Virus record (IMG/VR): IMGVR_UViG_3300042256_000025 | Length of the DNA: 64,000 bases | Direction: 5' to 3' (one strand) | From: a virus | Taxonomy: Duplodnaviria; Caudoviricetes | In this document: piece after piece, positions 9,770 to 40,799 of the stretch | How positions within the stretch are numbered: position 1 is the stretch's first letter | Layout: the number at the start of each line of letters is the position of its first letter | Made by a program: the position numbers and the translations under genes | The notes under the pieces: generated by a model | Told to the model about the DNA's origin: nothing | Databases searched by the model: none | The model's input: the letters and a program-made list of their open reading frames with translations, nothing else

Positions 9770-11231
9770 CCTTCTGTCCACTACAGACGCGACTCTGTAG
9801 CCGGTGTGCTTCGACACCCACCCCTGCTTTCACAGGGGAGCAGACCATATCACCTTCCTTCCACAGCGTGGTTAGGAAGCCTCCCGTATGGCAGGCGCTT
9901 GCCCGCTACTCCGCGCTACCGGATGGCCGTTGAACTCACTCCGTGTTACCCATAGGTAAGGTAGGAGCTTCGCTGCGTCGGTTGCCCAATCTCTAAGGGT
10001 TTTTACCATGCCTCTCACTTCCATTACTGGGAGAGGGATTACCCTACCTTTCGGTGGGTAAGGGGTACCTTAGAGCTATCAGGGGTTTCCCGCAGTTAGA
10101 GAGGATCCCTTAAACATCTCTGCCTAAGGGGACTTAGGATGTTTCCCTAGATAAGTGATGTGGTAGTGTTTCCATCTACCGTGGTTTTTCCATACGCTTC
10201 TTGCAACTGCCGCCTTGGTGGCGCCGACAGACGTAGCGAACTCTAAGATAGATTTGTATACCTCAGAAGTATCGGTCTTCAAGTTTATTACCCTTACAGG
10301 CAAAGGCTTCCGAACAGGGGCCGTAGGCTTTGGATTTTCCTTAGCCTCGACTTCCACAAACCCAGTAGTGTCAATACCGGCTGTGTGTAGATAAGTAAAC
10401 CAATAGCCATTTAAAATGTATTTTCTCCCCCGCTTTATGGCCTTATTGATCACCGCCCCACTGCGATTGAACGCCTCCGCACATGCGGTTAGTGTTGGGT
10501 AAATATACTTTACGTCGCCCTCATCTACCGGTATAGCCAGAACGGCTTTCGGTCGCCCACGTCTAGGGGTACCTATGTCTTCACGTGCTAAGCATGGCCA
10601 GGGCTCACCCTCAACGCGCAGACTAAAGAACTCCATAAAGGGCTCTTTTCTACCGCCCTTTAAATACCTATGGATGGCTTCGCCGTTCCGCTTAAAGTGT
10701 CGTGCTGCAGCCTGAAGGCTGTTAAAAGTAGTGACCGTACTATCACGTAGATCCATTACCTCAACCACCAAGTTATCAGTCCGCAACCCACTTTCGTAGG
10801 CGTGTCGAAGGTTACCGCTATAGCAAGTCCATTCTAAATTGCCAACAGATGAATCTGACTTGTCACCGTTGATGTGGTTTATAACAACCTCTTCCGGTTT
10901 TTTGGGCGAGGGTAGAAAGGTCTCACCCACTAGCCGGTGTATAAGGCGGGTACCATCTACTTTGTTATAGACTGCCGGATAACCAGACACAGTGGTCTGT
11001 GTCGCAGGTAAGTCAGTTAGAAGGTCATAAACCTCTCCAGCGGAATTAACAGCAAAGGTTTCACACCCAGCTGCCAAAACAAATCCATCCAAAGATTTAA
11101 TGCGCGTATGGTTGTCGGTAGGGTCAATCATCTTTATACCTCACATGTTATAGGTCCAAATGATTGTACCCATACTTTATTTTTTACCAGTAGTTACAAT
11201 CAACTTACTAGGGTTAACACTCCTAACGATT
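9770..11231 (-). mobile_element. Group I self-splicing intron with HNH homing endonuclease ORF
   Basis: 5' exon ends in U (GAT); intron ends in G. Core elements on the minus strand, about 9830-10100: P AACTGCGGGAAA, Q AACCGACGCAGC, R GTTCAACGGCCA, S GATATGGTCT. Confidence 0.88.
10124..11131 (-). CDS. Intron-encoded HNH homing endonuclease with NUMOD1-like repeats
   Basis: IHRLVGETF...INHINGDKSDSSVGNLEW; repeated FNSLQAAARHF / YPTLTACAEAF / YKSILEFA DNA-binding modules. Confidence 0.9.
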   Translation of the reverse strand: MIDPTDNHTRIKSLDGFVLAAGCETFAVNSAGEVYDLLTDLPATQTTVSGYPAVYNKVDGTRLIHRLVGETFLPSPKKPEEVVINHINGDKSDSSVGNLEWTCYSGNLRHAYESGLRTDNLVVEVMDLRDSTVTTFNSLQAAARHFKRNGEAIHRYLKGGRKEPFMEFFSLRVEGEPWPCLAREDIGTPRRGRPKAVLAIPVDEGDVKYIYPTLTACAEAFNRSGAVINKAIKRGRKYILNGYWFTYLHTAGIDTTGFVEVEAKENPKPTAPVRKPLPVRVINLKTDTSEVYKSILEFATSVGATKAAVARSVWKNHGRWKHYHITYLGKHPKSP

Positions 11232-12467
11232 ATCAGCGTTAGGAGCCTTCGTGCATAAAACTGACAACGTCGACACTCCTGAGGTCAGAGCATGTATATG
11301 CATGCACTGAATACTTCCCCTCGCAAGGGTCGGATAGCGGACCCACAGACAGCGTACGCCTTTACCCCCTGGGGCCTCTTGGAAGATCTCATAGAGTAGC
11401 TCCTCTAGCAGTGCATTGCGTGTGATGGTGTGACGATCGATGTATTCCCAGGCTTCTCGATGACTATAGCCCTTCTTGTAGAGTTTATTCAACAAGTGAA
11501 CTTTAAACATCGTAACCGCTTGAGAGTACGGGATCTTTATTTGCTCATAGTCATGTACCCCTGATTCCGAGACAATCACAGACCGGAATGCAAACGGTGT
11601 GCGTCCACCAAAGACGGTGTTACGCAGGAGACCTTCCTTTTTGGAGAAGGGGTCACCGAACATGTCGCTGTAGTAGCTAGCCAGCGAGTTAATGATGGAG
11701 GTAATCTTGCCTTCTAAGCGGCGTACGTTTGCATAGGTCTCCTCGTCGATAGACGTAATAGTGCGGGCCGCGTCTAGCGCTTCACGAATAGCGGTATCGG
11801 CATAGGTACCCGTAGCCGTGTTCTCCATGACGAATGCGATCTTATTCGGCATGGGGAGGTGTTGTGGAAAGAAGCGGTCCCGGTAGACGGTGAAAAACGT
11901 CTGCATGGACTCGCGTTCGTGTCTGGGCAATAGGGTTAAAATGGCCTCAGCGATATCATCAAAGTGGGCAATGAAATTATTCAGGCCTCTTGGGATGCCT
12001 GTTTTCATTAACCTATGTTTAATCATCGAGGCTTTCTTATTTGACTCAGGGGGATCTTCCATGAGTGGTGCACAGAACCACTGTAGTACATTAAAGCGTG
12101 ATCCAGTCATTATTGGAGATAGAATCATCCACAGCATTGGATTTACAAGGCTATAGATGCCTTGAGGGGCACGGAACCATACATTAGAGACGATCTCTTG
12201 GTCACCGGCTGCCTCTACACGGGTATTGCACTTAGGACAGAGTTGCCCTAGGTTATAGCCATAGGAGAGGTGACCACAGCTGCAGGAGGGAATCGATTCC
12301 AGTGTATCGGTGTGGTCATAAGTTGTCATGATCATAGCGTTCAATGCATCCCGCTCTTCCTTCGTTCGGGCCGGAACATCATTCAGGATGATCGGTGTGA
12401 AAGGGAGGGAGTGGAAGGCCCGATCGTGGTCATGGATAGAGAAAGCAATCATTTCATTCTCGTGCAT
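11232..12467 (-). CDS. nvRNAP beta' subunit (phiKZ gp55-like), exon 1
   Basis: Zinc finger CSCG...CPKC; KKEGLLRNTVFGGR, RSVIV and RYPTL motifs; ends APNAD at the splice site. Spliced product is 480 aa. Confidence 0.88.
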
Positions 12468-12664
12468 GGTTTTATCCCTCTATATGTAATGGAATTATGA
12501 AAAAAATAATAACTATAGATAAAGGACTACTTTACAGTAAACCCTTATCTACTACAATGTAAGGTTAGAATTTAACTTAGACGCCTACCACACAAAACAT
12601 TATGTCTATGTGGTAACTTCTCCCTACATTGGCATTCTACAGCATTAGAATGCAACAATAGACT

Positions 12665-13216
12665 TTAAACTGTAATTCTCTTAAAAGGAATTACCCAGTA
12701 ACTGCTGGTCTTGTTGGCGTAGTACCAATTCCCACCGCTGAAGTTAAGCACCCAGGCGTTGTAGGAACTGAACTCGGAAGAGGACCAGACGATCGCCGTG
12801 GGTAGACTGCCACTACTATCTAACGCATCTATCTGAGTCCTATTATTATAAATAAGCTGTAAATCGGATGCATTGGGCAGGTCATACCCTAGACTACGAC
12901 AATATTCTGCTGCAGGGCATCCAATGTTACCATACGAATCAGAGATAGAATTGTAAGTAGGACTAACCAATACACTAGTATTGTACACGGAAGAGTTTGG
13001 ATCAGTAGGGGTAGTGGGTGAGCCATTAGTACCACTTGCATTAGGCAGATTAGTATCAGTACCGTATAAACCCCAATCTTTAGTAGTACGTAGGCTAGCT
13101 GGAGCTACTACTAACCAGTCTCCATTATCCTGTCCAAAGATAATCCCTCCATACGGAAGGGTTGTACCAATCTTTATATCACTCATAGCTATACCTTCTT
13201 TTTTGCTAATGTACAT
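12665..13216 (-). CDS. Stand-alone CLec/DUF1566-type ligand-binding protein; remote DGR target C
   Basis: Homologous to the C-terminal domain of 36524-37819 (GGIIFGQDNGDWLVVAPAS, AAEYCRSLGYDLPN, VWSSSE, WVIPFKR); carries a 3' VR. Confidence 0.85.
   Translation of the reverse strand: MYISKKEGIAMSDIKIGTTLPYGGIIFGQDNGDWLVVAPASLRTTKDWGLYGTDTNLPNASGTNGSPTTPTDPNSSVYNTSVLVSPTYNSISDSYGNIGCPAAEYCRSLGYDLPNASDLQLIYNNRTQIDALDSSGSLPTAIVWSSSEFSSYNAWVLNFSGGNWYYANKTSSYWVIPFKRITV
12677..12802 (-). repeat. DGR variable repeat VR-C
   Basis: 126-nt ungapped match to the TR; by hand 19 mismatches at TR adenines and 9 at other bases. Confidence 0.8.
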
Positions 13217-13803
13217 TAGTTTTGTATATGAATTCTCTTAAATGGCACTACCCAGCAGATGCTGTGTTTGTAGCTGTAGTACCAATTCCCATTGCTGAAA
13301 TAAAGCATCCAGGCACTATAGGAATTGTACTCGGAAGAGGTCCAGACGCGCGTCGTGCCATACTCTGGCATATTCCCAAACTCAATAACCGATAGTGTGG
13401 GCCCTTCGGTGGTATCTGTAGCATCAATAGCTACCCTATTATCGTAGATTAGCTGCAAATCAGATGCATTGGGTAGGTCGTACCCTAGAGTACGACAGTA
13501 TTCTGCAGCGGGGCAGCCTACGTTGCCAAATGCATCGATAGTAGCACTATACTCATTACTAGTCAATGTACTAGTATTGTACTTACTACTATTCATATCG
13601 TTTGGTTTAGTAGGTGAGCCAACACTGCCACTCGTATTTGGAAGACTAGTATCTGTAGCGTATAATCCCCATGGCTTAATGATACGCTTACTAGCTGGAG
13701 CTACCACCAGCCAATCCCCACCATCTTCTCCGAATACAACCCCTCCGTCCTCTAATACACTACCTACCTTTAAGCCGCTCATGGCTTTAGTACCCTTTGA
13801 CAT
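13216..13803 (-). CDS. Stand-alone CLec/DUF1566-type protein; remote DGR target B (most drifted)
   Basis: Paralog of both neighbours; VWTSSE...AWMLYFSNGNW...WVVPFKR. Confidence 0.85.
   Translation of the reverse strand: MSKGTKAMSGLKVGSVLEDGGVVFGEDGGDWLVVAPASKRIIKPWGLYATDTSLPNTSGSVGSPTKPNDMNSSKYNTSTLTSNEYSATIDAFGNVGCPAAEYCRTLGYDLPNASDLQLIYDNRVAIDATDTTEGPTLSVIEFGNMPEYGTTRVWTSSEYNSYSAWMLYFSNGNWYYSYKHSICWVVPFKRIHIQN
13234..13359 (-). repeat. DGR variable repeat VR-B (degenerate)
   Basis: Colinear with the TR; many adenine-site changes plus about 16 non-A differences. Confidence 0.6.
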
Positions 13804-13809
13804 TGTACA

Positions 13810-14376
13810 TTAGTTTTGTATATGAATTCTCTTAAAAGGAATTACCCAGCGACTGCCGAGCTTGTTGGTGCAGTTCCAATACCCATAGCTGAAGAGAAGA
13901 CTCCAGGCGTTGTAGGAACTGTACTCGGAAGAGGACCAGACGCTCGACGTGGTGGAGCCAGGGGCAGTACCAGAGGAAATAGCCGATAACGTAGCTCCAC
14001 CGCTAGTGTCCAATGCATCAATCTGAGTCCTATTATTATAAATAAGCTGTAAATCAGATGCATTGGGTAGGTCGTACCCTAGACTACGACAATACTCTGC
14101 TGCAGTAGCCCCTACATTACCCTGTCCATCATTGATGGAATTGTAAGTAGGGCTAGTAAGTACATCCGTATTGTATTCTGATGAGTTAGGGTCAGTAGGG
14201 GTAGTAGTAGTCCCACTGCCACTCGTCCAGTTTGGAAGACTAGTATCAGTACCGTATAAACCCCAATCTTTAGTAGTACGTAGGCTAGCTGGAGCTACTA
14301 CAAGCCAATCTCCATTATCTTCTCCAAATACAACTCCACCATCAGGAAGAATTGTACCAATCTTTAAATCAGTCAT
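13810..14376 (-). CDS. Stand-alone CLec/DUF1566-type protein; remote DGR target A
   Basis: RBS GGAGG; paralog of the DGR target C-terminal domain. Confidence 0.85.
   Translation of the reverse strand: MTDLKIGTILPDGGVVFGEDNGDWLVVAPASLRTTKDWGLYGTDTSLPNWTSGSGTTTTPTDPNSSEYNTDVLTSPTYNSINDGQGNVGATAAEYCRSLGYDLPNASDLQLIYNNRTQIDALDTSGGATLSAISSGTAPGSTTSSVWSSSEYSSYNAWSLLFSYGYWNCTNKLGSRWVIPFKRIHIQN
13828..13953 (-). repeat. DGR variable repeat VR-A
   Basis: 126-nt ungapped match to the TR; by hand 20 adenine-site mismatches and 9 non-A mismatches at the same positions as in VR-C. Confidence 0.8.
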
Positions 14377-14438
14377 TTGTACCCTCCATATGTAATAACA
14401 GTAGTTTATTACAGTAAATTATAATTAAAGTGGCATAG

Positions 14439-14470
14439 TAATAAGGAGACCCCGAAGGGTCTCCTTATTA
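14439..14470 (-). terminator. Terminator hairpin after chmA
   Basis: TAATAAGGAGACCC-CGAA-GGGTCTCCTTATTA (TTCG loop on the minus strand). Confidence 0.8.
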
Positions 14471-14475
14471 TGGTT

Positions 14476-16431
14476 TCATCGGTTAAAGGGCTTGTTGAAT
14501 ACGGGGTTGATGTAGCTACCACGCATCTGCTCACCCATCGGGCCGGTCTGACCGTACGGAGACTGGTAGAAACCAGCTGCGTTGTAGGTACCACCGAAGT
14601 TCGGGTCGATACCCTGACGCTGCATGCCCTGATCGTAAGCGACCATGTCATCGGAGATGATACGGACGTCATTGTTGATCAGTGCCTGTACCAGACAGGG
14701 AATGAAGTTCGGTGAGAAGTACACCCGAGTGGCCATGCCGTTGATGTTACAGTCACCGGCAACGGACATCAGGCAGCGACGACGATCGGACAGGTTAATG
14801 TTGTTAGCGATACCCGGAGTCATTGCTGCGGTAGCCTGGGCTACGAACTGCAAGTCTTTCGGAGATGCTGCCAGCATGGTCAGATAATCGATAGTGCGCA
14901 GGTCACGAGCGCGACCGTCCTTATCGGTGTAGGTACCGAGGTGGACAGTAACAGTATCGTGGTGCATCACCGCAGCCTTAGCGTTACCGCTGTTAGCCTG
15001 TGCCCACACCTGGGAGAAGGCTCCGCCAGTCAGTGCATCGCATTCAGCGATGATGTCATCATTGGCGCCAGAGCGCGGGTTCTGCGCTGCAGCAATGAAT
15101 ACAGACTGTACCCACTCCAGACGACCGCCCTGCTCCACGTCCAGTGCAACAGCAACATTCTGCGTGCACCACTTATTGGCCATGCTGAACGGGGTTTCCT
15201 TACCTTCCTCCGGTACCTTGTTCAGGGAGACGGATTCAACCGGCACCTTACCCAACGCTTCCGGACCACGACCATAGGGATCGTATTCCAGACCCAGCAG
15301 ACCGATGGACTGCTTCTGTGTCTTCTGACCCGGGTAGGTTTCGAAGACACGAACCCAACCATGGTTAGCGGTCATGGCCAGCGTTGCAACCAGACCCATC
15401 AGCTGGGTGCGCAGGTCTTCAATTGAACGTCCGGAGTTAGCCAGACCGGCCACCTCGGTCAATATCACGACCGGCATGTAACCCGGCTTCGGTACCTGCG
15501 GCTGCTGCAGCTGGGCGTACGGGGACGACTGCTGCTGGGTTATGATATTGAAGTCTATGTAACCGGACACTTCGGCCAAGTTATGCTCCTGAGTACCAGT
15601 GTGTACCTGGTACATGTCACCCTGCTTCTGATTCACACGGGTCAGTTTGATGGATGTATTAAAGTCAGCTGCAATCGGCTGGCCAATACGGTTCAAACGA
15701 CACTCACCCGGAGTGATTGTAGTGCGCTGACGCACTGCAACCTGTGGGTTACGCAGGTGCTTGGCGGTTACACGACCCACGCCCTGACCACCAGCAGCAT
15801 CGATGATCGCCAGATGTGCAGAGTCAAAGTACACTCGAGTCACCTCAGCAGAGGACAGGTCCGCTGCTTTCGGTACCACACAGTGGCCGATATGAACCAC
15901 ATCAGCCGGATTCACCTTGTACTGGCTAGCCACGAAGGTGGAGACCACTTCACGCAGCTTGCTATCGAAGCAGCGGGTGGTTGGTCGATCAGTGATGATG
16001 TCCTTCTGACCCGAATAATCTCGGATTGTCTCCACGATCGGTTCCAGCTTAGAGGACATCATGCCCTCAATCAACAGGTTGTACACTACGACCTGCTTGG
16101 TGGCGCTGGAAACCGCACACAGTGCCAACACCGGCAGATACAATTGCTGACTTGAAACGGAGACCACCTCCAGTTTCAGCATGTTGCTGATCTCTGGCAG
16201 TCCTGCCAGTCGCTTCATCTCTTCACTGAAGGCTGCGAAGCCTTCAGTATCCATACCACCGGACAGGGTGGTGACACCCAGGCCATCGAAAGGATCTGTA
16301 CCGTCATACTCGTTATAACGAGTATTGTTACTATACCCCTGTTGTGGCTGGGGCTGATGTGTCTGCTGTGCAGCCTGCGGCTGTGCAGTCTGGTCCGCAG
16401 TTTTGTTCTGAGAGTTGTCATTCACACGCAT
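14476..16431 (-). CDS. chmA: Chimallin, major phage nuclear shell protein
   Basis: 651 aa; Q-rich disordered N-terminus; RLNRIGQPIAADF, VSGYIDF, HLGTYTDKDGRARDLRTIDYL and GMATRVYF segments; sits between the DNA polymerase and gp55-like genes; early promoter. Confidence 0.85.
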   Translation of the reverse strand: MRVNDNSQNKTADQTAQPQAAQQTHQPQPQQGYSNNTRYNEYDGTDPFDGLGVTTLSGGMDTEGFAAFSEEMKRLAGLPEISNMLKLEVVSVSSQQLYLPVLALCAVSSATKQVVVYNLLIEGMMSSKLEPIVETIRDYSGQKDIITDRPTTRCFDSKLREVVSTFVASQYKVNPADVVHIGHCVVPKAADLSSAEVTRVYFDSAHLAIIDAAGGQGVGRVTAKHLRNPQVAVRQRTTITPGECRLNRIGQPIAADFNTSIKLTRVNQKQGDMYQVHTGTQEHNLAEVSGYIDFNIITQQQSSPYAQLQQPQVPKPGYMPVVILTEVAGLANSGRSIEDLRTQLMGLVATLAMTANHGWVRVFETYPGQKTQKQSIGLLGLEYDPYGRGPEALGKVPVESVSLNKVPEEGKETPFSMANKWCTQNVAVALDVEQGGRLEWVQSVFIAAAQNPRSGANDDIIAECDALTGGAFSQVWAQANSGNAKAAVMHHDTVTVHLGTYTDKDGRARDLRTIDYLTMLAASPKDLQFVAQATAAMTPGIANNINLSDRRRCLMSVAGDCNINGMATRVYFSPNFIPCLVQALINNDVRIISDDMVAYDQGMQRQGIDPNFGGTYNAAGFYQSPYGQTGPMGEQMRGSYINPVFNKPFNR

Positions 16432-16508
16432 GATTTCTTCCTTTTCATGAAAGTGTAGGGATCGCGGTTAAACTATTCGAATAGCCTAACAGATGCTAGA
16501 CCACTATT

Positions 16509-16518
16509 GTAATATAGG
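16509..16518 (-). promoter_or_regulatory. Early promoter CCTATATTAC of chmA
   Basis: Motif copy about 80 nt upstream of the chmA start. Confidence 0.8.
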
Positions 16519-16782
16519 TCTTGAATCCGCTTGAATTGCCAGTTTTACACCGATTAGGTGAACTAGACGTCAGTCTGCACCCATCCAATCGGGTTAGAGG
16601 GTGAAAATTAATACATCTAGAACTCGCGCACCGCGTATTTCTGGTCGTACACCAATGCCTTGCGGCACTGGCGAGTTCTTTGTATATAATAGTGTCACTG
16701 TGATTATTTTTTACAATTCACACATTCTAATAATGATTATCGACTGGAATCCTATAGACACCCCCGTACTCATGGAGCTAAT

Positions 16783-34466: not shown

Positions 34467-35600
34467 TTATAGCTTTATTAAACGGGTGCAGTTTGAATCG
34501 GTAGTAAAAAAGCCAGGGATAGTGTGTTGCTCTACTAAACGTCTACGGACATTAAATGAAGTAGAGTGCACCATGTGCCCTAAGTAGCTATTAATCGTTG
34601 ACTGTACACGATCCCGCTCTGTCCAAAAATCACTGTAGTCGACTACAATTGAATTAGCTGTAGTCAATATACAATTCCGCGTATATCGTCTCCATGGTTT
34701 ATGGACGTATCCTACGAAATTAATGCCTTGTGAGGCCGGCGTAATGGTACATTTATCTGGATGGACAGTTAACTCAAGTCGTTGTTTCAAGTATTGTCCG
34801 ATTTGTACTTTCCATTCTTCCAGCTCGCTGCGGTTGGTTGAGAGAATAACCGCGTCGTCTACGTAGCGAACGTAGGCTTTCACGCCTAAAACATGCTTGA
34901 CAAATTTATCAAAGTCATCTAGATACACGTTACTTGCAACTTGACTCAACAGATTTCCGATCGGTAAGCCATAGTTATACGGTACGTTCCAAAGTGACTT
35001 GTGTTTAGGTACGAGCTCAAACTGGCTATTCGGTTTTATAATCGGATTTACCGTAGGGTCGTTCCACAGTACCAGGTAAAGTAGATTAGATGTGAGGGAC
35101 GATGAAGGTTCACCCACATGTCGTTCAAACTTATCCCACAGTATGTACTTGTTTATAGATACGAAAAAGTTCTTTATATCAAACTGTAGAACGAAGCAGT
35201 CAGTTGCGTAGTTACGGGTTACCCTGCGATGTAGCGCGGTGACCCTATTCGAGGCGGCTAGTGTACCCCTACCCTTAATGCAGCTGTAGGTATCCTCAAT
35301 AAAGCGTTCCTCTAAGTATCGGCCAATATCTGCGTAGATAAGGTGGTGTACGATACGATCCCTAAACTGTGCCGCCCATATCTCCCGAGGTTTAGGTCGC
35401 GTTACTACGAAGACCTCGGATCGACCTATCTCATAATTGCCGTTGTTCACCTCGTCTAATAGAGTTAAAAGATTGTCCTCGAACCTTAGCTCAAATTCAA
35501 GGGCTGAACGCTTGTTGCGCTTCAAACGCCTACAGTCTAGATAGGCATAAAGTATATCTTCGTACGTGTACCGGTCCCGAAGGACTATCGGTGTAGACAC
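34467..35600 (-). CDS. DGR reverse transcriptase
   Basis: AYLDCRRLKR, KPREIWAAQFRDRIVHH, GLPIGNLLSQ (DGR-type SQ), YVRYVDD and GINFVGY. Confidence 0.97.
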   Translation of the reverse strand: MSTPIVLRDRYTYEDILYAYLDCRRLKRNKRSALEFELRFEDNLLTLLDEVNNGNYEIGRSEVFVVTRPKPREIWAAQFRDRIVHHLIYADIGRYLEERFIEDTYSCIKGRGTLAASNRVTALHRRVTRNYATDCFVLQFDIKNFFVSINKYILWDKFERHVGEPSSSLTSNLLYLVLWNDPTVNPIIKPNSQFELVPKHKSLWNVPYNYGLPIGNLLSQVASNVYLDDFDKFVKHVLGVKAYVRYVDDAVILSTNRSELEEWKVQIGQYLKQRLELTVHPDKCTITPASQGINFVGYVHKPWRRYTRNCILTTANSIVVDYSDFWTERDRVQSTINSYLGHMVHSTSFNVRRRLVEQHTIPGFFTTDSNCTRLIKL

Positions 35601-35608
35601 TTGCTTTA

Positions 35609-35734
35609 TCTCCGGAAAGGCACTACCCAGTTACTGTTGTTCTTGTTGTTGTTGTTCCAATTCCCATTGCCAAAGTTCAGGTTCCAGGCGTTGTTGGAAT
35701 TGTTCTCGGTAGAGGACCAGACGTTCGTCGTGGT
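35609..35734 (-). repeat. DGR template repeat (TR)
   Basis: 126 nt, 43 adenines, 16 AAY codons; reads TTTNVWSSTENNSNNAWNLNFGNGNWNNNNKNNSNWVVPFRR. Confidence 0.97.
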
Positions 35735-35892
35735 GTTAGACCATAGACTCGAATCACACCGACATGTCGCCACCTCGGTTAGACGCTTTTAGCCTTTTAC
35801 CGCATGGGTGCTATGGTCCGAGATAGTGGACGTCTACGCCGACCTTGGTCTAAGCGCACTCTGTCTGTGTCTCCGATAGTCCATTCGTAATG

Positions 35893-36297
35893 TTAAATTC
35901 TGGCGTCGGTTATAATTGCACCAGCCCACTGTTTTTGCTGTACTGTACAGGCAACGAGTCGTTGGACTTGTTTACCAAACCCAATTTGTCCGCGCTCTCC
36001 AGTCGACACCGCACGCACATCATAGGCAATACGATATGATAAGAGCAATGCTTGGAGGTGGTGATTTATCTCCTTTACTAGTTGCAATTTTCTATTTCTG
36101 TCATTAACCTCCTCGTAGGCTAAGAATATTGAAAGAGTCAGACTAGTGGCCTGATCGATTAGCTTCGTACCTAAGGTAAATTTAAACTGCTTAGGCATTC
36201 GTGATACTAAAATGTGGGTGTCTTTGAGTATACTCCTTGCCAGCTGATATAATTTTGTACGTTCGTGAGGTTGAATTTGATGCTCTAGATTTGTCAT
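35893..36297 (-). CDS. avd: Accessory variability determinant (Avd, four-helix bundle)
   Basis: Basic helical protein with RMPKQFKFTLGTKL, between target and TR; start taken at MTNLEH (track ORF begins at 36348). Confidence 0.85.
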   Translation of the reverse strand: MTNLEHQIQPHERTKLYQLARSILKDTHILVSRMPKQFKFTLGTKLIDQATSLTLSIFLAYEEVNDRNRKLQLVKEINHHLQALLLSYRIAYDVRAVSTGERGQIGFGKQVQRLVACTVQQKQWAGAIITDARI

Positions 36298-36332
36298 ACA
36301 AAATACAGTGGGTTGGTAAATAAAAAAAAACA

Positions 36333-36362
36333 CCCTGTAACCGCCCACGCGCGGTTACAGGG
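36333..36362 (-). terminator. Terminator-like hairpin between target gene and avd
   Basis: CCCTGTAACCGC/GCGGTTACAGGG stem followed by a T-run on the minus strand. Confidence 0.7.
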
Positions 36363-36513: not shown

Positions 36514-36537
36514 GAATACCCGTTTAAACGGGTATTC
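36514..36537. promoter_or_regulatory. Perfect 24-bp palindrome at the VR 3' end (candidate retrohoming cruciform)
   Basis: GAATACCCGTTTAAACGGGTATTC; absent after the TR. Confidence 0.7.
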
Positions 36538-37819
36538 TCCGGAAAGGCACTACCCAGTAACTGTTGCCCTTGCTGCTGCTGTACCAATTCCCATTGCCAA
36601 AGGCCAGGTACCAGGCGCTGTAGGAATTGCTCTCGGTAGAGGACCAGACGTACGACGTGGGTAGGTTACCGGTAGCGTCCGCTGCATTAATCTGAGTCCG
36701 ATTATTGTAGATAAGCTGCAGATCCTTAGCATTGGGTAAGTCGTACCCTAGACTACGGCAGTATTCTGCAGCGGTAGCGCCGTTGTAGTTATTAACCAGT
36801 ACGTCCGTATTGTACTCTGAGGAGTTAGGGTCATTCGGTGGGGCCCCGGACCCTACGTTGGGAAGGCTCGTATCGGTACCGTAGAGACCCCATGCTTTAG
36901 TCTGATGCTGTGAAGCGGGTGCAACGACCAGCCAGTCGCCTCCCTCCTGACCGAAAACGATACCGCCATCGGGCAGCGTAGTGCCTACCCCGATCAGCGT
37001 TTCAGTTTTAAACCCAATATAGGCACTCCAGGCTGACCAGTCACCCGTACTATCCTTATAACGTACGCGGGCGTAATACTGGGTACCTTCTGCCAGATTA
37101 CTACTAGGCTGCCAGCTACTCACGGCACCCAATTCACCACTGTTTACCAGTCCAGTCGTAAAACCGGTGTTGGTTGCTAATTGAAACTGGGTGCCACTAT
37201 GGACCTCATTGTTCTCAATTGCAAACGCAGATGCACTGAGTGTAGGACGCAATACTACATCGGTAGAGCCATTTGTAGGGCCTGTCACAGAGGGCGTACT
37301 GGGTGCAATCGACGTGGTCGTGAAGGTGGTTAGGGGAGAGGTAGCTGTTCCGCCGGTACTGCCTTCATAAATAACCTCTACATACACAGCGGTGCTCGCT
37401 GCGAATGCGTAAAACCCTTCAACATCAAAGGTTGTCAACGCGGTGGTGGTGCGACCACTGGTAAACAAAAGGTTAGTTTTATTAACATCCCCATAGAAAT
37501 TCCAGATAGATGCAACGTGGGTATCCTGAGTACCGTCTGCCAGCACCCCATTAAAACTGGAGGCCGTAATGATAGGGCGAATAGTTACCCCAGTCGCACC
37601 GTTCAAAGGAGAAATAATTGTGGGGCGCGCGATGCCCTCGAAGGACACGTCCATTGACATTGCCACGCCACCGGGGGTAACACCGTCACAGATGTGAAGT
37701 GTGGGTACGCCTGTGCGCAGGTCAATAATCGGTTCACCCGGGGTCCCTAGATATTGTTCAATCGCATTGGACGTAAACCGTTTCCAGAGCCAAGGCTCTC
37801 GCATGATTTTTGTAGCCAT
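36524..37819 (-). CDS. DGR target, putative receptor-binding fibre: Mtd_N-like head, two Ig/FN3-like domains, CLec (DUF1566-like) tip
   Basis: GTPGEPIIDL...LHICDGVTPGG; PTIISPLNGATGV and PSVTGPTNGSTDV repeats; YYARVRYKD..WSAWS; C-terminal VR. Confidence 0.88.
   Translation of the reverse strand: MATKIMREPWLWKRFTSNAIEQYLGTPGEPIIDLRTGVPTLHICDGVTPGGVAMSMDVSFEGIARPTIISPLNGATGVTIRPIITASSFNGVLADGTQDTHVASIWNFYGDVNKTNLLFTSGRTTTALTTFDVEGFYAFAASTAVYVEVIYEGSTGGTATSPLTTFTTTSIAPSTPSVTGPTNGSTDVVLRPTLSASAFAIENNEVHSGTQFQLATNTGFTTGLVNSGELGAVSSWQPSSNLAEGTQYYARVRYKDSTGDWSAWSAYIGFKTETLIGVGTTLPDGGIVFGQEGGDWLVVAPASQHQTKAWGLYGTDTSLPNVGSGAPPNDPNSSEYNTDVLVNNYNGATAAEYCRSLGYDLPNAKDLQLIYNNRTQINAADATGNLPTSYVWSSTESNSYSAWYLAFGNGNWYSSSKGNSYWVVPFRRIPV
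36536..36661 (-). repeat. DGR variable repeat VR1
   Basis: 110/126 identical to the TR; all 16 mismatches are at TR adenines. Confidence 0.97.
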
Positions 37820-39159: not shown

Positions 39160-39804
39160 CTACCCTAACAAACGCCACTGCTTATCAGACAGGTTTACTA
39201 ATGTAGGAGTGACGACTCCGTCGGGACTATGTAAGTATACCGTTTTATCATCCGCACTGCGACACTGATAGTAGGTGCCTTCTTCTGTTACCTTCGTACG
39301 GTGCATCATAAACGGTCGGACACCTACATCAAGTGTCTTACCAGTAGGGGTAAAGCTAAACCCCACTACGTCCACCATCGGTATACGTACGTAGGTCGAT
39401 GTGACCACTAACAGAATGTTACACTCGTCCACACGGTGCAGTGTAACACCCTGTATTTCAGTTTTATACATAGCCGTTTCACTGTAACCGGTTACCAGAG
39501 ACTCCGTATCACCGCAAAACCATTGTGCGTATACCCCCAACATATCGCCCTGCTCGACTGAACGCAGTAAAGGACGAACCACAACCACCCCGGCACTATG
39601 GTTCAGCCCCTCCTCAAACAATACCCGCCCTTCGCAGACCGTGGTGGAGCATAACAGGTGACGTTTACGTACCTTTAGCCAGGCACCGTTTTCTTTATAA
39701 CTATACTCTAAATAATCCATACTGCCCCTCAATGTCGTATCTGAATAAAACTTAATGCGCCCGTACTGCCCGCACGTCTCACTGTAAAGGCACTGCCTTT
39801 CCAC
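39160..39804 (-). CDS. Hypothetical protein (start probably MDYLEY)
   Basis: Beta-rich ORF in a co-oriented run. Confidence 0.55.
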   Translation of the reverse strand: MERQCLYSETCGQYGRIKFYSDTTLRGSMDYLEYSYKENGAWLKVRKRHLLCSTTVCEGRVLFEEGLNHSAGVVVVRPLLRSVEQGDMLGVYAQWFCGDTESLVTGYSETAMYKTEIQGVTLHRVDECNILLVVTSTYVRIPMVDVVGFSFTPTGKTLDVGVRPFMMHRTKVTEEGTYYQCRSADDKTVYLHSPDGVVTPTLVNLSDKQWRLLG

Positions 39805-40172: not shown

Positions 40173-40799
40173 TTAGACCGCCTCTGGAGTCGCCTCCGGT
40201 GCATTGACCCGCAATGTATACCGATCCCCTAAACAACCGACCAAAAGATCGCGCGCTTCTTCGCCCTCAATGGTAAAGTCCACCTCAATCGAACCAATGT
40301 GCGTAATATCCGAAACCACCCCTTCGTGTAACTCCCCTCGATTGGATATCAGGTAAATATCCGGTATAACCTCATCCTCACAGACTATCATTAGGTAGGT
40401 ATCCAGTCCGGGCTTACTAATATCTACGATCTGGGGTGGCGACTGGGATTCGATTGCAGTACTGGTAACCGACAGTGTGTAGTTATGCACTGCTGTATCT
40501 AGATCCACTTGTGTAATGCGTTGACCGTGACGTTTATCGTAGCTGTATATAGAGAACTGGCCACGGCTATACCAGTAGTGCATATAACGATCGTCCTCAC
40601 ACTCGACCAAGGGTACCTCTATAGGGGTCATGAAGATACGGCGCAGTGTACGTGTAAACCAGTTGCCCCCTATCATGGCTGGTTCGATTCGAAGTACAAA
40701 TCGTTGGATTAAAGGATCTTTAGGTCCTTCTACTGTCTCAGAATAGATAATAGCTAGACCCTTCTCTGGAGTACCGATCTCTAAAATGACACTGCGCAT
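40173..40799 (-). CDS. Hypothetical protein
   Basis: 208 aa; RBS AAGGA. Confidence 0.65.
   Translation of the reverse strand: MRSVILEIGTPEKGLAIIYSETVEGPKDPLIQRFVLRIEPAMIGGNWFTRTLRRIFMTPIEVPLVECEDDRYMHYWYSRGQFSIYSYDKRHGQRITQVDLDTAVHNYTLSVTSTAIESQSPPQIVDISKPGLDTYLMIVCEDEVIPDIYLISNRGELHEGVVSDITHIGSIEVDFTIEGEEARDLLVGCLGDRYTLRVNAPEATPEAV

Follow-up and report, generated by a model that had tools for sequence, protein, structure and literature searches.

A trio of lectin-fold genes in a chimallin jumbo phage carries variable regions that differ from the resident retroelement template at non-adenine sites

Multi-target retroelements and the trio

Diversity-generating retroelements (DGRs) with several targets, and with targets that are not adjacent to them, are known from Treponema denticola and from phages, in which targets can lie tens of kb away in the same genome, with cases within 50 kb (Wu et al. 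2018, PMC5758913). In these multi-target systems one cassette of reverse transcriptase (RT) and template repeat (TR) serves several genes, with the variable region (VR) at the 3′ end of a C-type lectin (CLec)-type domain. About half of the "category d" targets, which consist of DUF1566 only (the Legionella LdtA class), are short, domain-alone proteins (PMC5758913). Multi-target, non-adjacent and short DUF1566-only DGR targets are all known already. Here we describe three tandem genes of related design (A, B and C; hereafter, the trio) in a 64,000-nucleotide stretch of the virus record IMGVR_UViG_3300042256_000025 (Caudoviricetes; hereafter, the window), where they lie between the genes for chimallin (chmA) and for the beta′ subunit of the non-virion RNA polymerase (nvRNAP).

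The trio was originally predicted as three tandem paralogues of 183–195 amino acids (aa), and three minus-strand open reading frames (ORFs) of 183, 195 and 188 aa are indeed present:

13810–14376, minus strand: gene C, stand-alone CLec (Lcl_C/DUF1566-like), ORF of 188 aa, first gene of the trio
13216–13803, minus strand: gene B, stand-alone CLec paralogue, ORF of 195 aa from the first ATG; probable start at 13782, giving 188 aa
12665–13216, minus strand: gene A, stand-alone CLec paralogue, ORF of 183 aa from the first ATG; probable start at 13186, giving 173 aa as in relatives

The locus shares with the DGRs of Wu et al. (PMC5758913) the plan of one RT/TR cassette with several targets and a VR at the 3′ end of a CLec-type domain. 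Targets are assigned there by differences from the TR at adenines only, whereas the trio VRs carry 9–16 non-adenine mismatches, correspond to another template version and reside in a chimallin jumbo phage. As in the LdtA class, each protein is a short DUF1566-type domain alone; the best Pfam family is Lcl_C (PF07603), at 20.6–25.3 bits and thus below the 34.9-bit cut-off (E 5.5e-4 for gene C). Unlike LdtA, a cell-surface lipoprotein, the trio proteins have no signal or lipobox. On balance we consider it probable that the trio represents DGR-written alleles that are off-template and now fixed, most likely imported by recombination.

The window contains a complete DGR of its own:

36524–37819, minus strand: DGR fibre target gene, 431 aa
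36536–36660, minus strand: fibre VR, active; 15/15 mismatches to the TR fall at TR adenines
36514–36537, minus strand: fibre VR hairpin, 10-bp stem and 4-nt loop, starting at the end of the VR homology (fold z −3.9; the same in contig L012)
35893–36348, minus strand: Avd-like gene
35609–35733, minus strand: resident TR, 125 nt with 42 adenines
34467–35600, minus strand: DGR reverse transcriptase (RVT_1, E 1.7e-18)

This element resembles the Mtd/DGR system of the Bordetella phage BPP-1 (Guo et al. 2011) in the order of target, avd, TR and RT, in its adenine-specific changes and in the stem-loop with a 4-nt loop directly after the fibre VR (PMC3240598). The trio departs from BPP-1, which has one target anchored in the tail fibre, in lacking both stem-loop and fibre anchor; the BPP-1 stem-loop aids homing and is not strictly needed for it (PMC3240598, PMC12875486). 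The resident DGR is active, and the fibre VR varies at TR adenines. It differs from the TR at 15 of 42 adenine sites and at 0 of 83 other positions. Over 7.3 kb the strain represented by L012 is 99.4% identical to the window, with 13 of the 43 differences in the fibre VR, all 13 at TR adenines, and the 90% cluster of the fibre protein comprises three variants that differ only at AAC codons.

Several side observations concern this element. Contigs L001 and L008 end exactly in the fibre VR, as is expected where a hypervariable stretch breaks assembly; L001 has no TR-like copy. The fibre VR of L008 (L008:1–125) carries a 3-nt insertion relative to its own TR (CTCACCAAG where the TR has AACAAG), an unusual feature for the VR of a DGR. 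Where L012 differs from the window outside the fibre VR, the differences cluster in two short patches upstream of the fibre gene (39334–39540 and 40503–40714), which may also be variable or recombining. Both the RT and the Avd gene (34467–36348) are AT-rich, with GC content at third codon positions (GC3) of 0.46 and 0.38 versus 0.53 for the fibre gene, and the DGR core may itself be an import.

Template versions behind the trio variable regions

Each trio gene has at its 3′ end a 125-nt segment in the ungapped register of the TR, at 74–78% identity, and five TR-like copies were found in the window, versus none expected from shuffles. The trio segments are as follows:

13828–13952, minus strand: VR_C, 125 nt; 20/42 adenine-site and 9/83 non-adenine mismatches to the TR
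13234–13358, minus strand: VR_B, the most decayed copy; 16/42 adenine-site and 16/83 non-adenine mismatches
12677–12801, minus strand: VR_A; 18/42 adenine-site and 9/83 non-adenine mismatches

The trio VRs had been described as colinear with a TR about 21 kb away. This is borne out by the register, but the adenine-only pattern of a current target is absent. DGR targets are recognized by TR–VR differences at TR adenines only, with minor exceptions allowed (PMC5758913); the fibre VR shows this pattern and the trio VRs, with 9, 16 and 9 mismatches at the 83 non-adenine positions, do not. Mismatches are enriched at TR adenines in A (p 1.3e-4) and C (p 1e-5), and weakly so in B (p 0.03). Positions 53, 56, 62, 63 and 119–121 differ from the TR in all three genes, and 111 and 113 in A and C; the resident TR has C53, G56, T62, G63, G111 and G113 at these diagnostic sites. 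A and C carry six internal fixed non-adenine differences and B carries 12 in its core. In the tail, CCG at 119–121 is changed to TAA throughout the trio, and in A and C the 3′ end of the VR changes from GTAGTGCC to GTAATTCC. Judged by these fixed differences, the TR at 35609–35733 is not the template of the trio VRs.

The contrary view, that the trio VRs are current remote targets of this TR, was that of the original prediction, and we regard it as very unlikely. Register, length and adenine enrichment agree with it; the resident DGR, which is active, seems capable of serving a paralogue, P0005 (described below), that has no hairpin and the same TTTTAAGAGA tail; and BPP-1 does not strictly depend on the stem-loop (PMC12875486). 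However, any homing event from this TR would restore its bases at 53, 56, 62, 63, 111 and 113, and none of these positions has been reset in the window, in contigs L004 and L009–L011 or in four sequencing runs. The altered 3′ end of the VR in A and C also argues against it, as does the rule that assignment of non-adjacent targets needs A-to-N differences with minor exceptions only (PMC5758913).

The comparison of A with C is the most informative. Their VRs differ at 18 of 42 adenine sites and at 2 of 83 non-adenine sites (Fisher p 1.7e-8), including one of 71 non-adenine positions in the core, and only one of 40 non-adenine third-codon VR sites has changed. Upstream of the VR, by comparison, 80 of 385 positions differ (21%; proportion of synonymous differences, pS, 0.46; synonymous divergence, dS, 0.72). 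The homogenized tract begins and ends where the homology between the TR and the fibre VR does. Because the VR differences lie at adenine sites despite the diverged upstream sequence, A and C must have been rewritten from one template after the genes diverged. Purifying selection is excluded as the cause of this pattern, since selection cannot silence synonymous sites, and so is gene conversion, which would also have erased the differences at adenine sites. By this pattern the VRs of A and C are DGR-written, from the cDNA of a shared template that we call T2, which corresponds to the resident TR except at 53, 56, 62, 63, 111 and 113, the T2 bases including T56, C62, A63, A111 and T113. VR_B has at least nine core non-adenine differences to every other VR and is, on this count, an older, decayed copy.

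Ordinary diverged duplicates, on which point mutation and diversifying selection had acted and a DGR never had, would agree with the weak adenine bias of B (16/42 versus 16/83), but the A/C pattern, with almost no silent non-adenine change beside a flank at pS 0.46, is impossible on that basis. The explanation is rejected for A and C, and for the trio as a whole we find it scarcely credible.

A pairwise matrix was compiled over 19 VR and TR copies, and copies identical at non-adenine sites were grouped. Group T1 holds the resident TR, the fibre VRs and gene g0 of contig L002; group T2 holds A, C and the A-like genes of L009 and L011; and group T3, defined by C62/A63, holds L003 g3, L005 and L007b. 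A TR with the T3 bases is found in L017 (L017:890–1014), the most divergent member of the 90% cluster of the RT (RT 91% identical); it retains 42/42 adenines, carries C62/A63 and is matched by its own VR. As this TR is exactly the variant predicted from L003 g3, L005 and L007b, the inference of templates from VRs is validated. The VR of L003 g3 (L003:2434–2557), a paralogue belonging to the genome of the window, fits the L017 TR variant better than the resident TR. By this grouping, at least three template versions are represented among the VRs of one genome.

A single-lineage "fossil series" in one genome, running from T2 through T3 to T1, was considered and rejected on TR change rates. At about 93% genome identity, the TR of L008 has changed at one position of 125; at 91% RT identity, two positions have changed. 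As the TR is slow to change and A and C have only 1–2 non-adenine differences since homing, the six TR changes are not those of a single lineage. Such change being too slow, T2 must be a separate template, present now or recently, elsewhere in the genome or in another phage.

The number of paralogues given in the original prediction, three, is right for the window but an undercount genome-wide, since at least four further stand-alone VR-bearing paralogues lie outside it (P0005, P0012 and a further two on L003). The first of these, P0005, has been assigned to the 199.5-kb contig from which the window comes; it is 214 aa long and includes a short Ig-like remnant. Its nucleotide evidence comes from a sister contig, where L002 g0 (L002:1–330) equals the P0005 C-terminus letter for letter; this VR differs from the resident TR at 19 of 36 adenines and at 0 of 71 core non-adenine positions. 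P0005 is thereby a candidate live remote target, and the resident DGR does seem to serve a stand-alone remote target. The proposal of a multi-target system acting in trans holds in kind and for this genome, given the adenine-specific A/C pattern and the fit of P0005 to the TR, but not for the action of the resident TR on the trio.

No stem-loop lies 3′ of VR_B or VR_C, and A is followed after 24 nt by a weak 8-bp hairpin (z −1.15). The CCG-to-TAA tail and the missing hairpin were considered as a cause of inactivity and dropped, because the TR-fitting P0005 has the same tail and likewise no hairpin.

Population variation and origin of the cassettes

Population variation was followed in assembled Logan contigs of wastewater runs, in which rare variants are dropped. 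In the contigs of four runs VR_A and VR_B show no other letters, and neither does VR_C in the main contigs of runs X1–X3; the fourth run has almost no contig cover there. Apparent variants at 13943–13947 and 14092–14344 are explained by cross-mapping of paralogues, as is a loose end at 12752, which is the VR of L003 g3. L004, from another sample, is 100% identical to the window up to its end at 12739, inside VR_A. B and C each form a 90% cluster with a single sequence, which for B occurs on four contigs. In other contexts, the A-like genes of L009, L010 and L011 keep the same VR allele with three adenine-site and no non-adenine changes, despite a divergence of 9–19% in the 5′ half of the gene. 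The trio VRs are probably static now, as fixed alleles that are no longer being rewritten. Of the two signs that had been proposed for fossil duplicates, invariance is seen, but adenine-site divergence exceeds non-adenine divergence rather than equalling it.

Two observations bear on the number of paralogues. One low-depth contig of run X3 joins 13256 (VR_B) to 13903 (VR_C), skipping 646 nt, and may derive from a relative with fewer paralogues. In L011 a C-like gene is followed directly by an A-like gene, with no B.

The mobility of these genes is seen in L009, which carries an A-like gene together with part of the flank of the trio:

12376–12664, minus strand: intergenic region and first 92 nt of the nvRNAP gene, which travels with the A-like gene in L009

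Relative to the window, L009 is 100% identical over 12560–12664, 96.7% over 12468–12559 and 88% over 12376–12467, after which the sequences are unrelated. The match is mosaic, at 96–100% across the VR and the 200 nt of spacer that follow it and 81–83% in the 5′ half of the gene. The A-like gene (L009:10001–10813, corresponding to 12376–13181 of the window) stands in an unrelated neighbourhood (Band_7, DHFR; GC 0.38), and the 92-nt fragment of the nvRNAP 5′ end beside it is called there as a 40-aa ORF. The L009 junction looks like the footprint of illegitimate recombination, and to judge from these mosaics cassettes of the trio's family clearly move by recombination between genomes. A-like genes sit in contigs of GC 0.38–0.42. 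A horizontal origin of the trio itself is probable on these grounds.

The sequence of events we favour is as follows. The trio is a small operon of intact, selected, anchor-less and presumably ligand-binding proteins of C-type-lectin fold, copies of the tip domain of the DGR fibre, and the VRs of A and C were rewritten from the same T2 after the genes had diverged. Cassettes already diversified in this way would then have been imported from a related phage whose TR is of another version, landing by recombination in the junction of chmA and nvRNAP. The resident DGR now services the fibre VR and apparently at least P0005 and has not overwritten A, B and C, which as fixed alleles would provide three frozen binding specificities.

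It is also conceivable, though we think it unlikely, that the trio VRs are live targets of T2, located either elsewhere in the genome and using the same RT or supplied in trans by a co-infecting relative within a common phage nucleus, so that the system would be a two-template, many-target DGR. The near-identity of A and C at non-adenine sites (1/71 in the core) indicates a relatively recent last homing, the homogenized tract has the limits of TR/fibre-VR homology, and the VRs of this genome correspond to no fewer than three template versions. Moreover, the C-like orthologue in L011 has a VR keyed to a template other than T2, which shows that C-type genes are rewritten in the genomes where they reside. 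Against this, no assembly shows variation in the trio VRs, no second RT from the window's contig occurs among the best 120 RT relatives, and no T2 sequence was found in the collections searched.

Several points weigh against an import of retired alleles. T2 was not found in the window, the fetched loci, viral_contigs or metagenome_contigs; of the 199.5-kb genome this search covered the window, and a second TR could lie in the other ~135 kb. A pattern scan of metagenomes returned four loci only, none of them T2, and more distant DGRs (RT 58–60% identical) were discarded as its source, as their TRs have 23–33 non-adenine differences. The protein collection likewise holds no RT at 62–91% identity to accompany a T2 element. 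The population evidence comes from contigs of a handful of 2025 wastewater samples, which may belong to one campaign. The three VR_A differences at adenine sites only could be the trace of low-level adenine mutagenesis (chance about 4%). P0005 is invariant in its few contigs and has no hairpin; since a paralogue that fits the TR shows both properties, invariance and the absence of a hairpin are weak discriminators. Finally, the direction of transfer is ambiguous: the nvRNAP fragment in L009 points outward from a window-like locus, and base composition points the opposite way.

Lectin-fold proteins, neighbouring genes and implications

The alignment of the trio proteins with the DGR fibre (431 aa) is confined to its last ~160 residues, and the AlphaFold2 model of C is confident (predicted local distance difference test score, pLDDT, 88.5). 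Structural comparison of this model returned the C-terminal domain of Legionella Lcl (PDB code: 8q4e; Z 11.6, root-mean-square deviation 2.2, 112 aligned residues, 26% identity), a Bacteroides fimbrial adhesin tip (4eps; Z 12.4, 166 aligned) and the C-terminal domain of Bdellovibrio Bd2740 (8oks; Z 9.3, 100 aligned), with ordinary C-type lectins at Z 6–8. A sequence search of the PDB using the family profile gave nothing significant. As modelled, the trio has an Lcl_C/DUF1566-like C-type-lectin fold, that of the Lcl C-terminal domain and equal to that of the fibre tip. The three adhesin domains share the fold at 11–26% sequence identity and sit at the ends of long stalks or fibres, whereas the trio domain stands alone; by inspection rather than by predictor, the proteins have no N-terminal stalk and no hydrophobic leader. 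The earlier description of the trio as the CLec tip domain of the fibre only, with neither Mtd_N/Ig stalk nor signal peptide, agrees with these results. From the model the proteins would be expected to bind ligands; a fold in common with adhesin tips does not show a common ligand.

Upstream of the VR, the ratio of nonsynonymous to synonymous substitution (dN/dS) is 0.1–0.3 across all comparisons and 0.1–0.2 for gene C. Because this ratio is low, the trio can be taken as working genes under purifying selection. The genes have a GC content of 0.43–0.45 and are AT-richer than their neighbours, as first noted: their GC3 is 0.37–0.43, versus 0.63 for chmA and 0.56 for nvRNAP, and the lectin domain of the fibre (0.605) and the C-terminus of P0005 (0.555) are also higher.

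Interchangeable adhesin tips and intracellular hypervariable binders, two of the roles suggested earlier, are candidate functions. A third suggestion was that the trio serves as a donor library from which tips pass into the fibre gene by recombination (cassette switching). Homology between the trio and the fibre tip spans about 480 nt, and recombination does move cassettes between genomes. However, identity to the fibre ahead of the VR is only 62–69%, poor for homologous exchange, and GC3 is strongly different between trio and fibre. In every known fibre VR variant the differences are confined to TR adenines and the non-adenine bases of the TR are all preserved; trio-type bases never appear. 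The donor-library suggestion is not borne out, and we judge it extremely unlikely.

The neighbouring features are as follows:

14476–16431, minus strand: chmA (chimallin; PF25677, E 3e-18)
14443–14466, minus strand: putative terminator-like hairpin read from the sequence, 10-bp stem and TTCG loop, just past the chmA stop and ahead of the trio
14382–14396, minus strand: 15-nt motif ATTACATATGGAGGG, upstream of C; contains GGAGGG, which resembles a ribosome-binding site (RBS); second copy at 12476–12490 upstream of nvRNAP
11223–12467, minus strand: nvRNAP beta′ gene (phrog_2987, E 9e-114)

The matches of the chimallin gene by tblastn are annotated nuclear shell proteins, with an identity to known phages of only 22–27%. 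Flanked by the chimallin and nvRNAP beta′ genes, the trio stands in the context of a nucleus-forming jumbo phage. In the Klebsiella phage Eowyn an RNA polymerase subunit gene directly follows the nuclear-shell gene after a 94-nt gap, in accordance with the earlier statement that the trio separates a normally adjacent pair. As the pair is adjacent in Eowyn, the trio is an insertion into a conserved chmA–RNA polymerase pair. Megablast of 11000–16600 and tblastn of gene C gave no match among GenBank phages, and chimallin patterns and a 40-nt VR pattern gave none in IMG/VR, the only relative found being L001.

Within the trio, C and B are separated by 6 nt and B and A overlap. Alignment of relatives, together with RBS-like GAAGG/AAGGG motifs, suggests that the internal ATGs at 13186 (A) and 13782 (B) are the real starts. 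The 15-mer ATTACATATRGAGGG occurs twice in the 64 kb, both times just before a start codon (those of C and nvRNAP), with the surrounding similarity limited to the motif; it may be a common promoter or RBS element. A scan for sigma-70 promoters did not score above shuffles. Directly downstream of the nvRNAP beta′ gene lies a gene of homing-endonuclease type with HNH and NUMOD1 (10124–11131, minus strand). The nvRNAP beta′ gene itself covers only positions 2–418 of the 478-position phrog_2987 profile, and the polymerase gene may be interrupted.

The locus adds a DGR family inside a chimallin jumbo phage. In the literature searched no paper combines DGRs with chimallin, and a wider search on the phage nucleus gave none among the matches listed. 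Since the phage DNA is presumably inside the phage nucleus, as in characterized chimallin phages, RT and Avd would have to work on shielded DNA. The non-adenine positions of a VR record the template version that last wrote it, which provides a simple test to separate live targets from retired or imported ones. A trade of already-diversified binding modules between phages is suggested. One could go further, and here we are quite doubtful, in regarding roughly 8–12 anchor-less lectin paralogues as a repertoire that several co-circulating phages have written with their templates, through cassette exchange or through DGR RNA or cDNA acting in trans in a shared phage nucleus, and that acts intracellularly as hypervariable binders of, for instance, host defence proteins. 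If these anchor-less proteins do act intracellularly, this would be a new use for DGR products.

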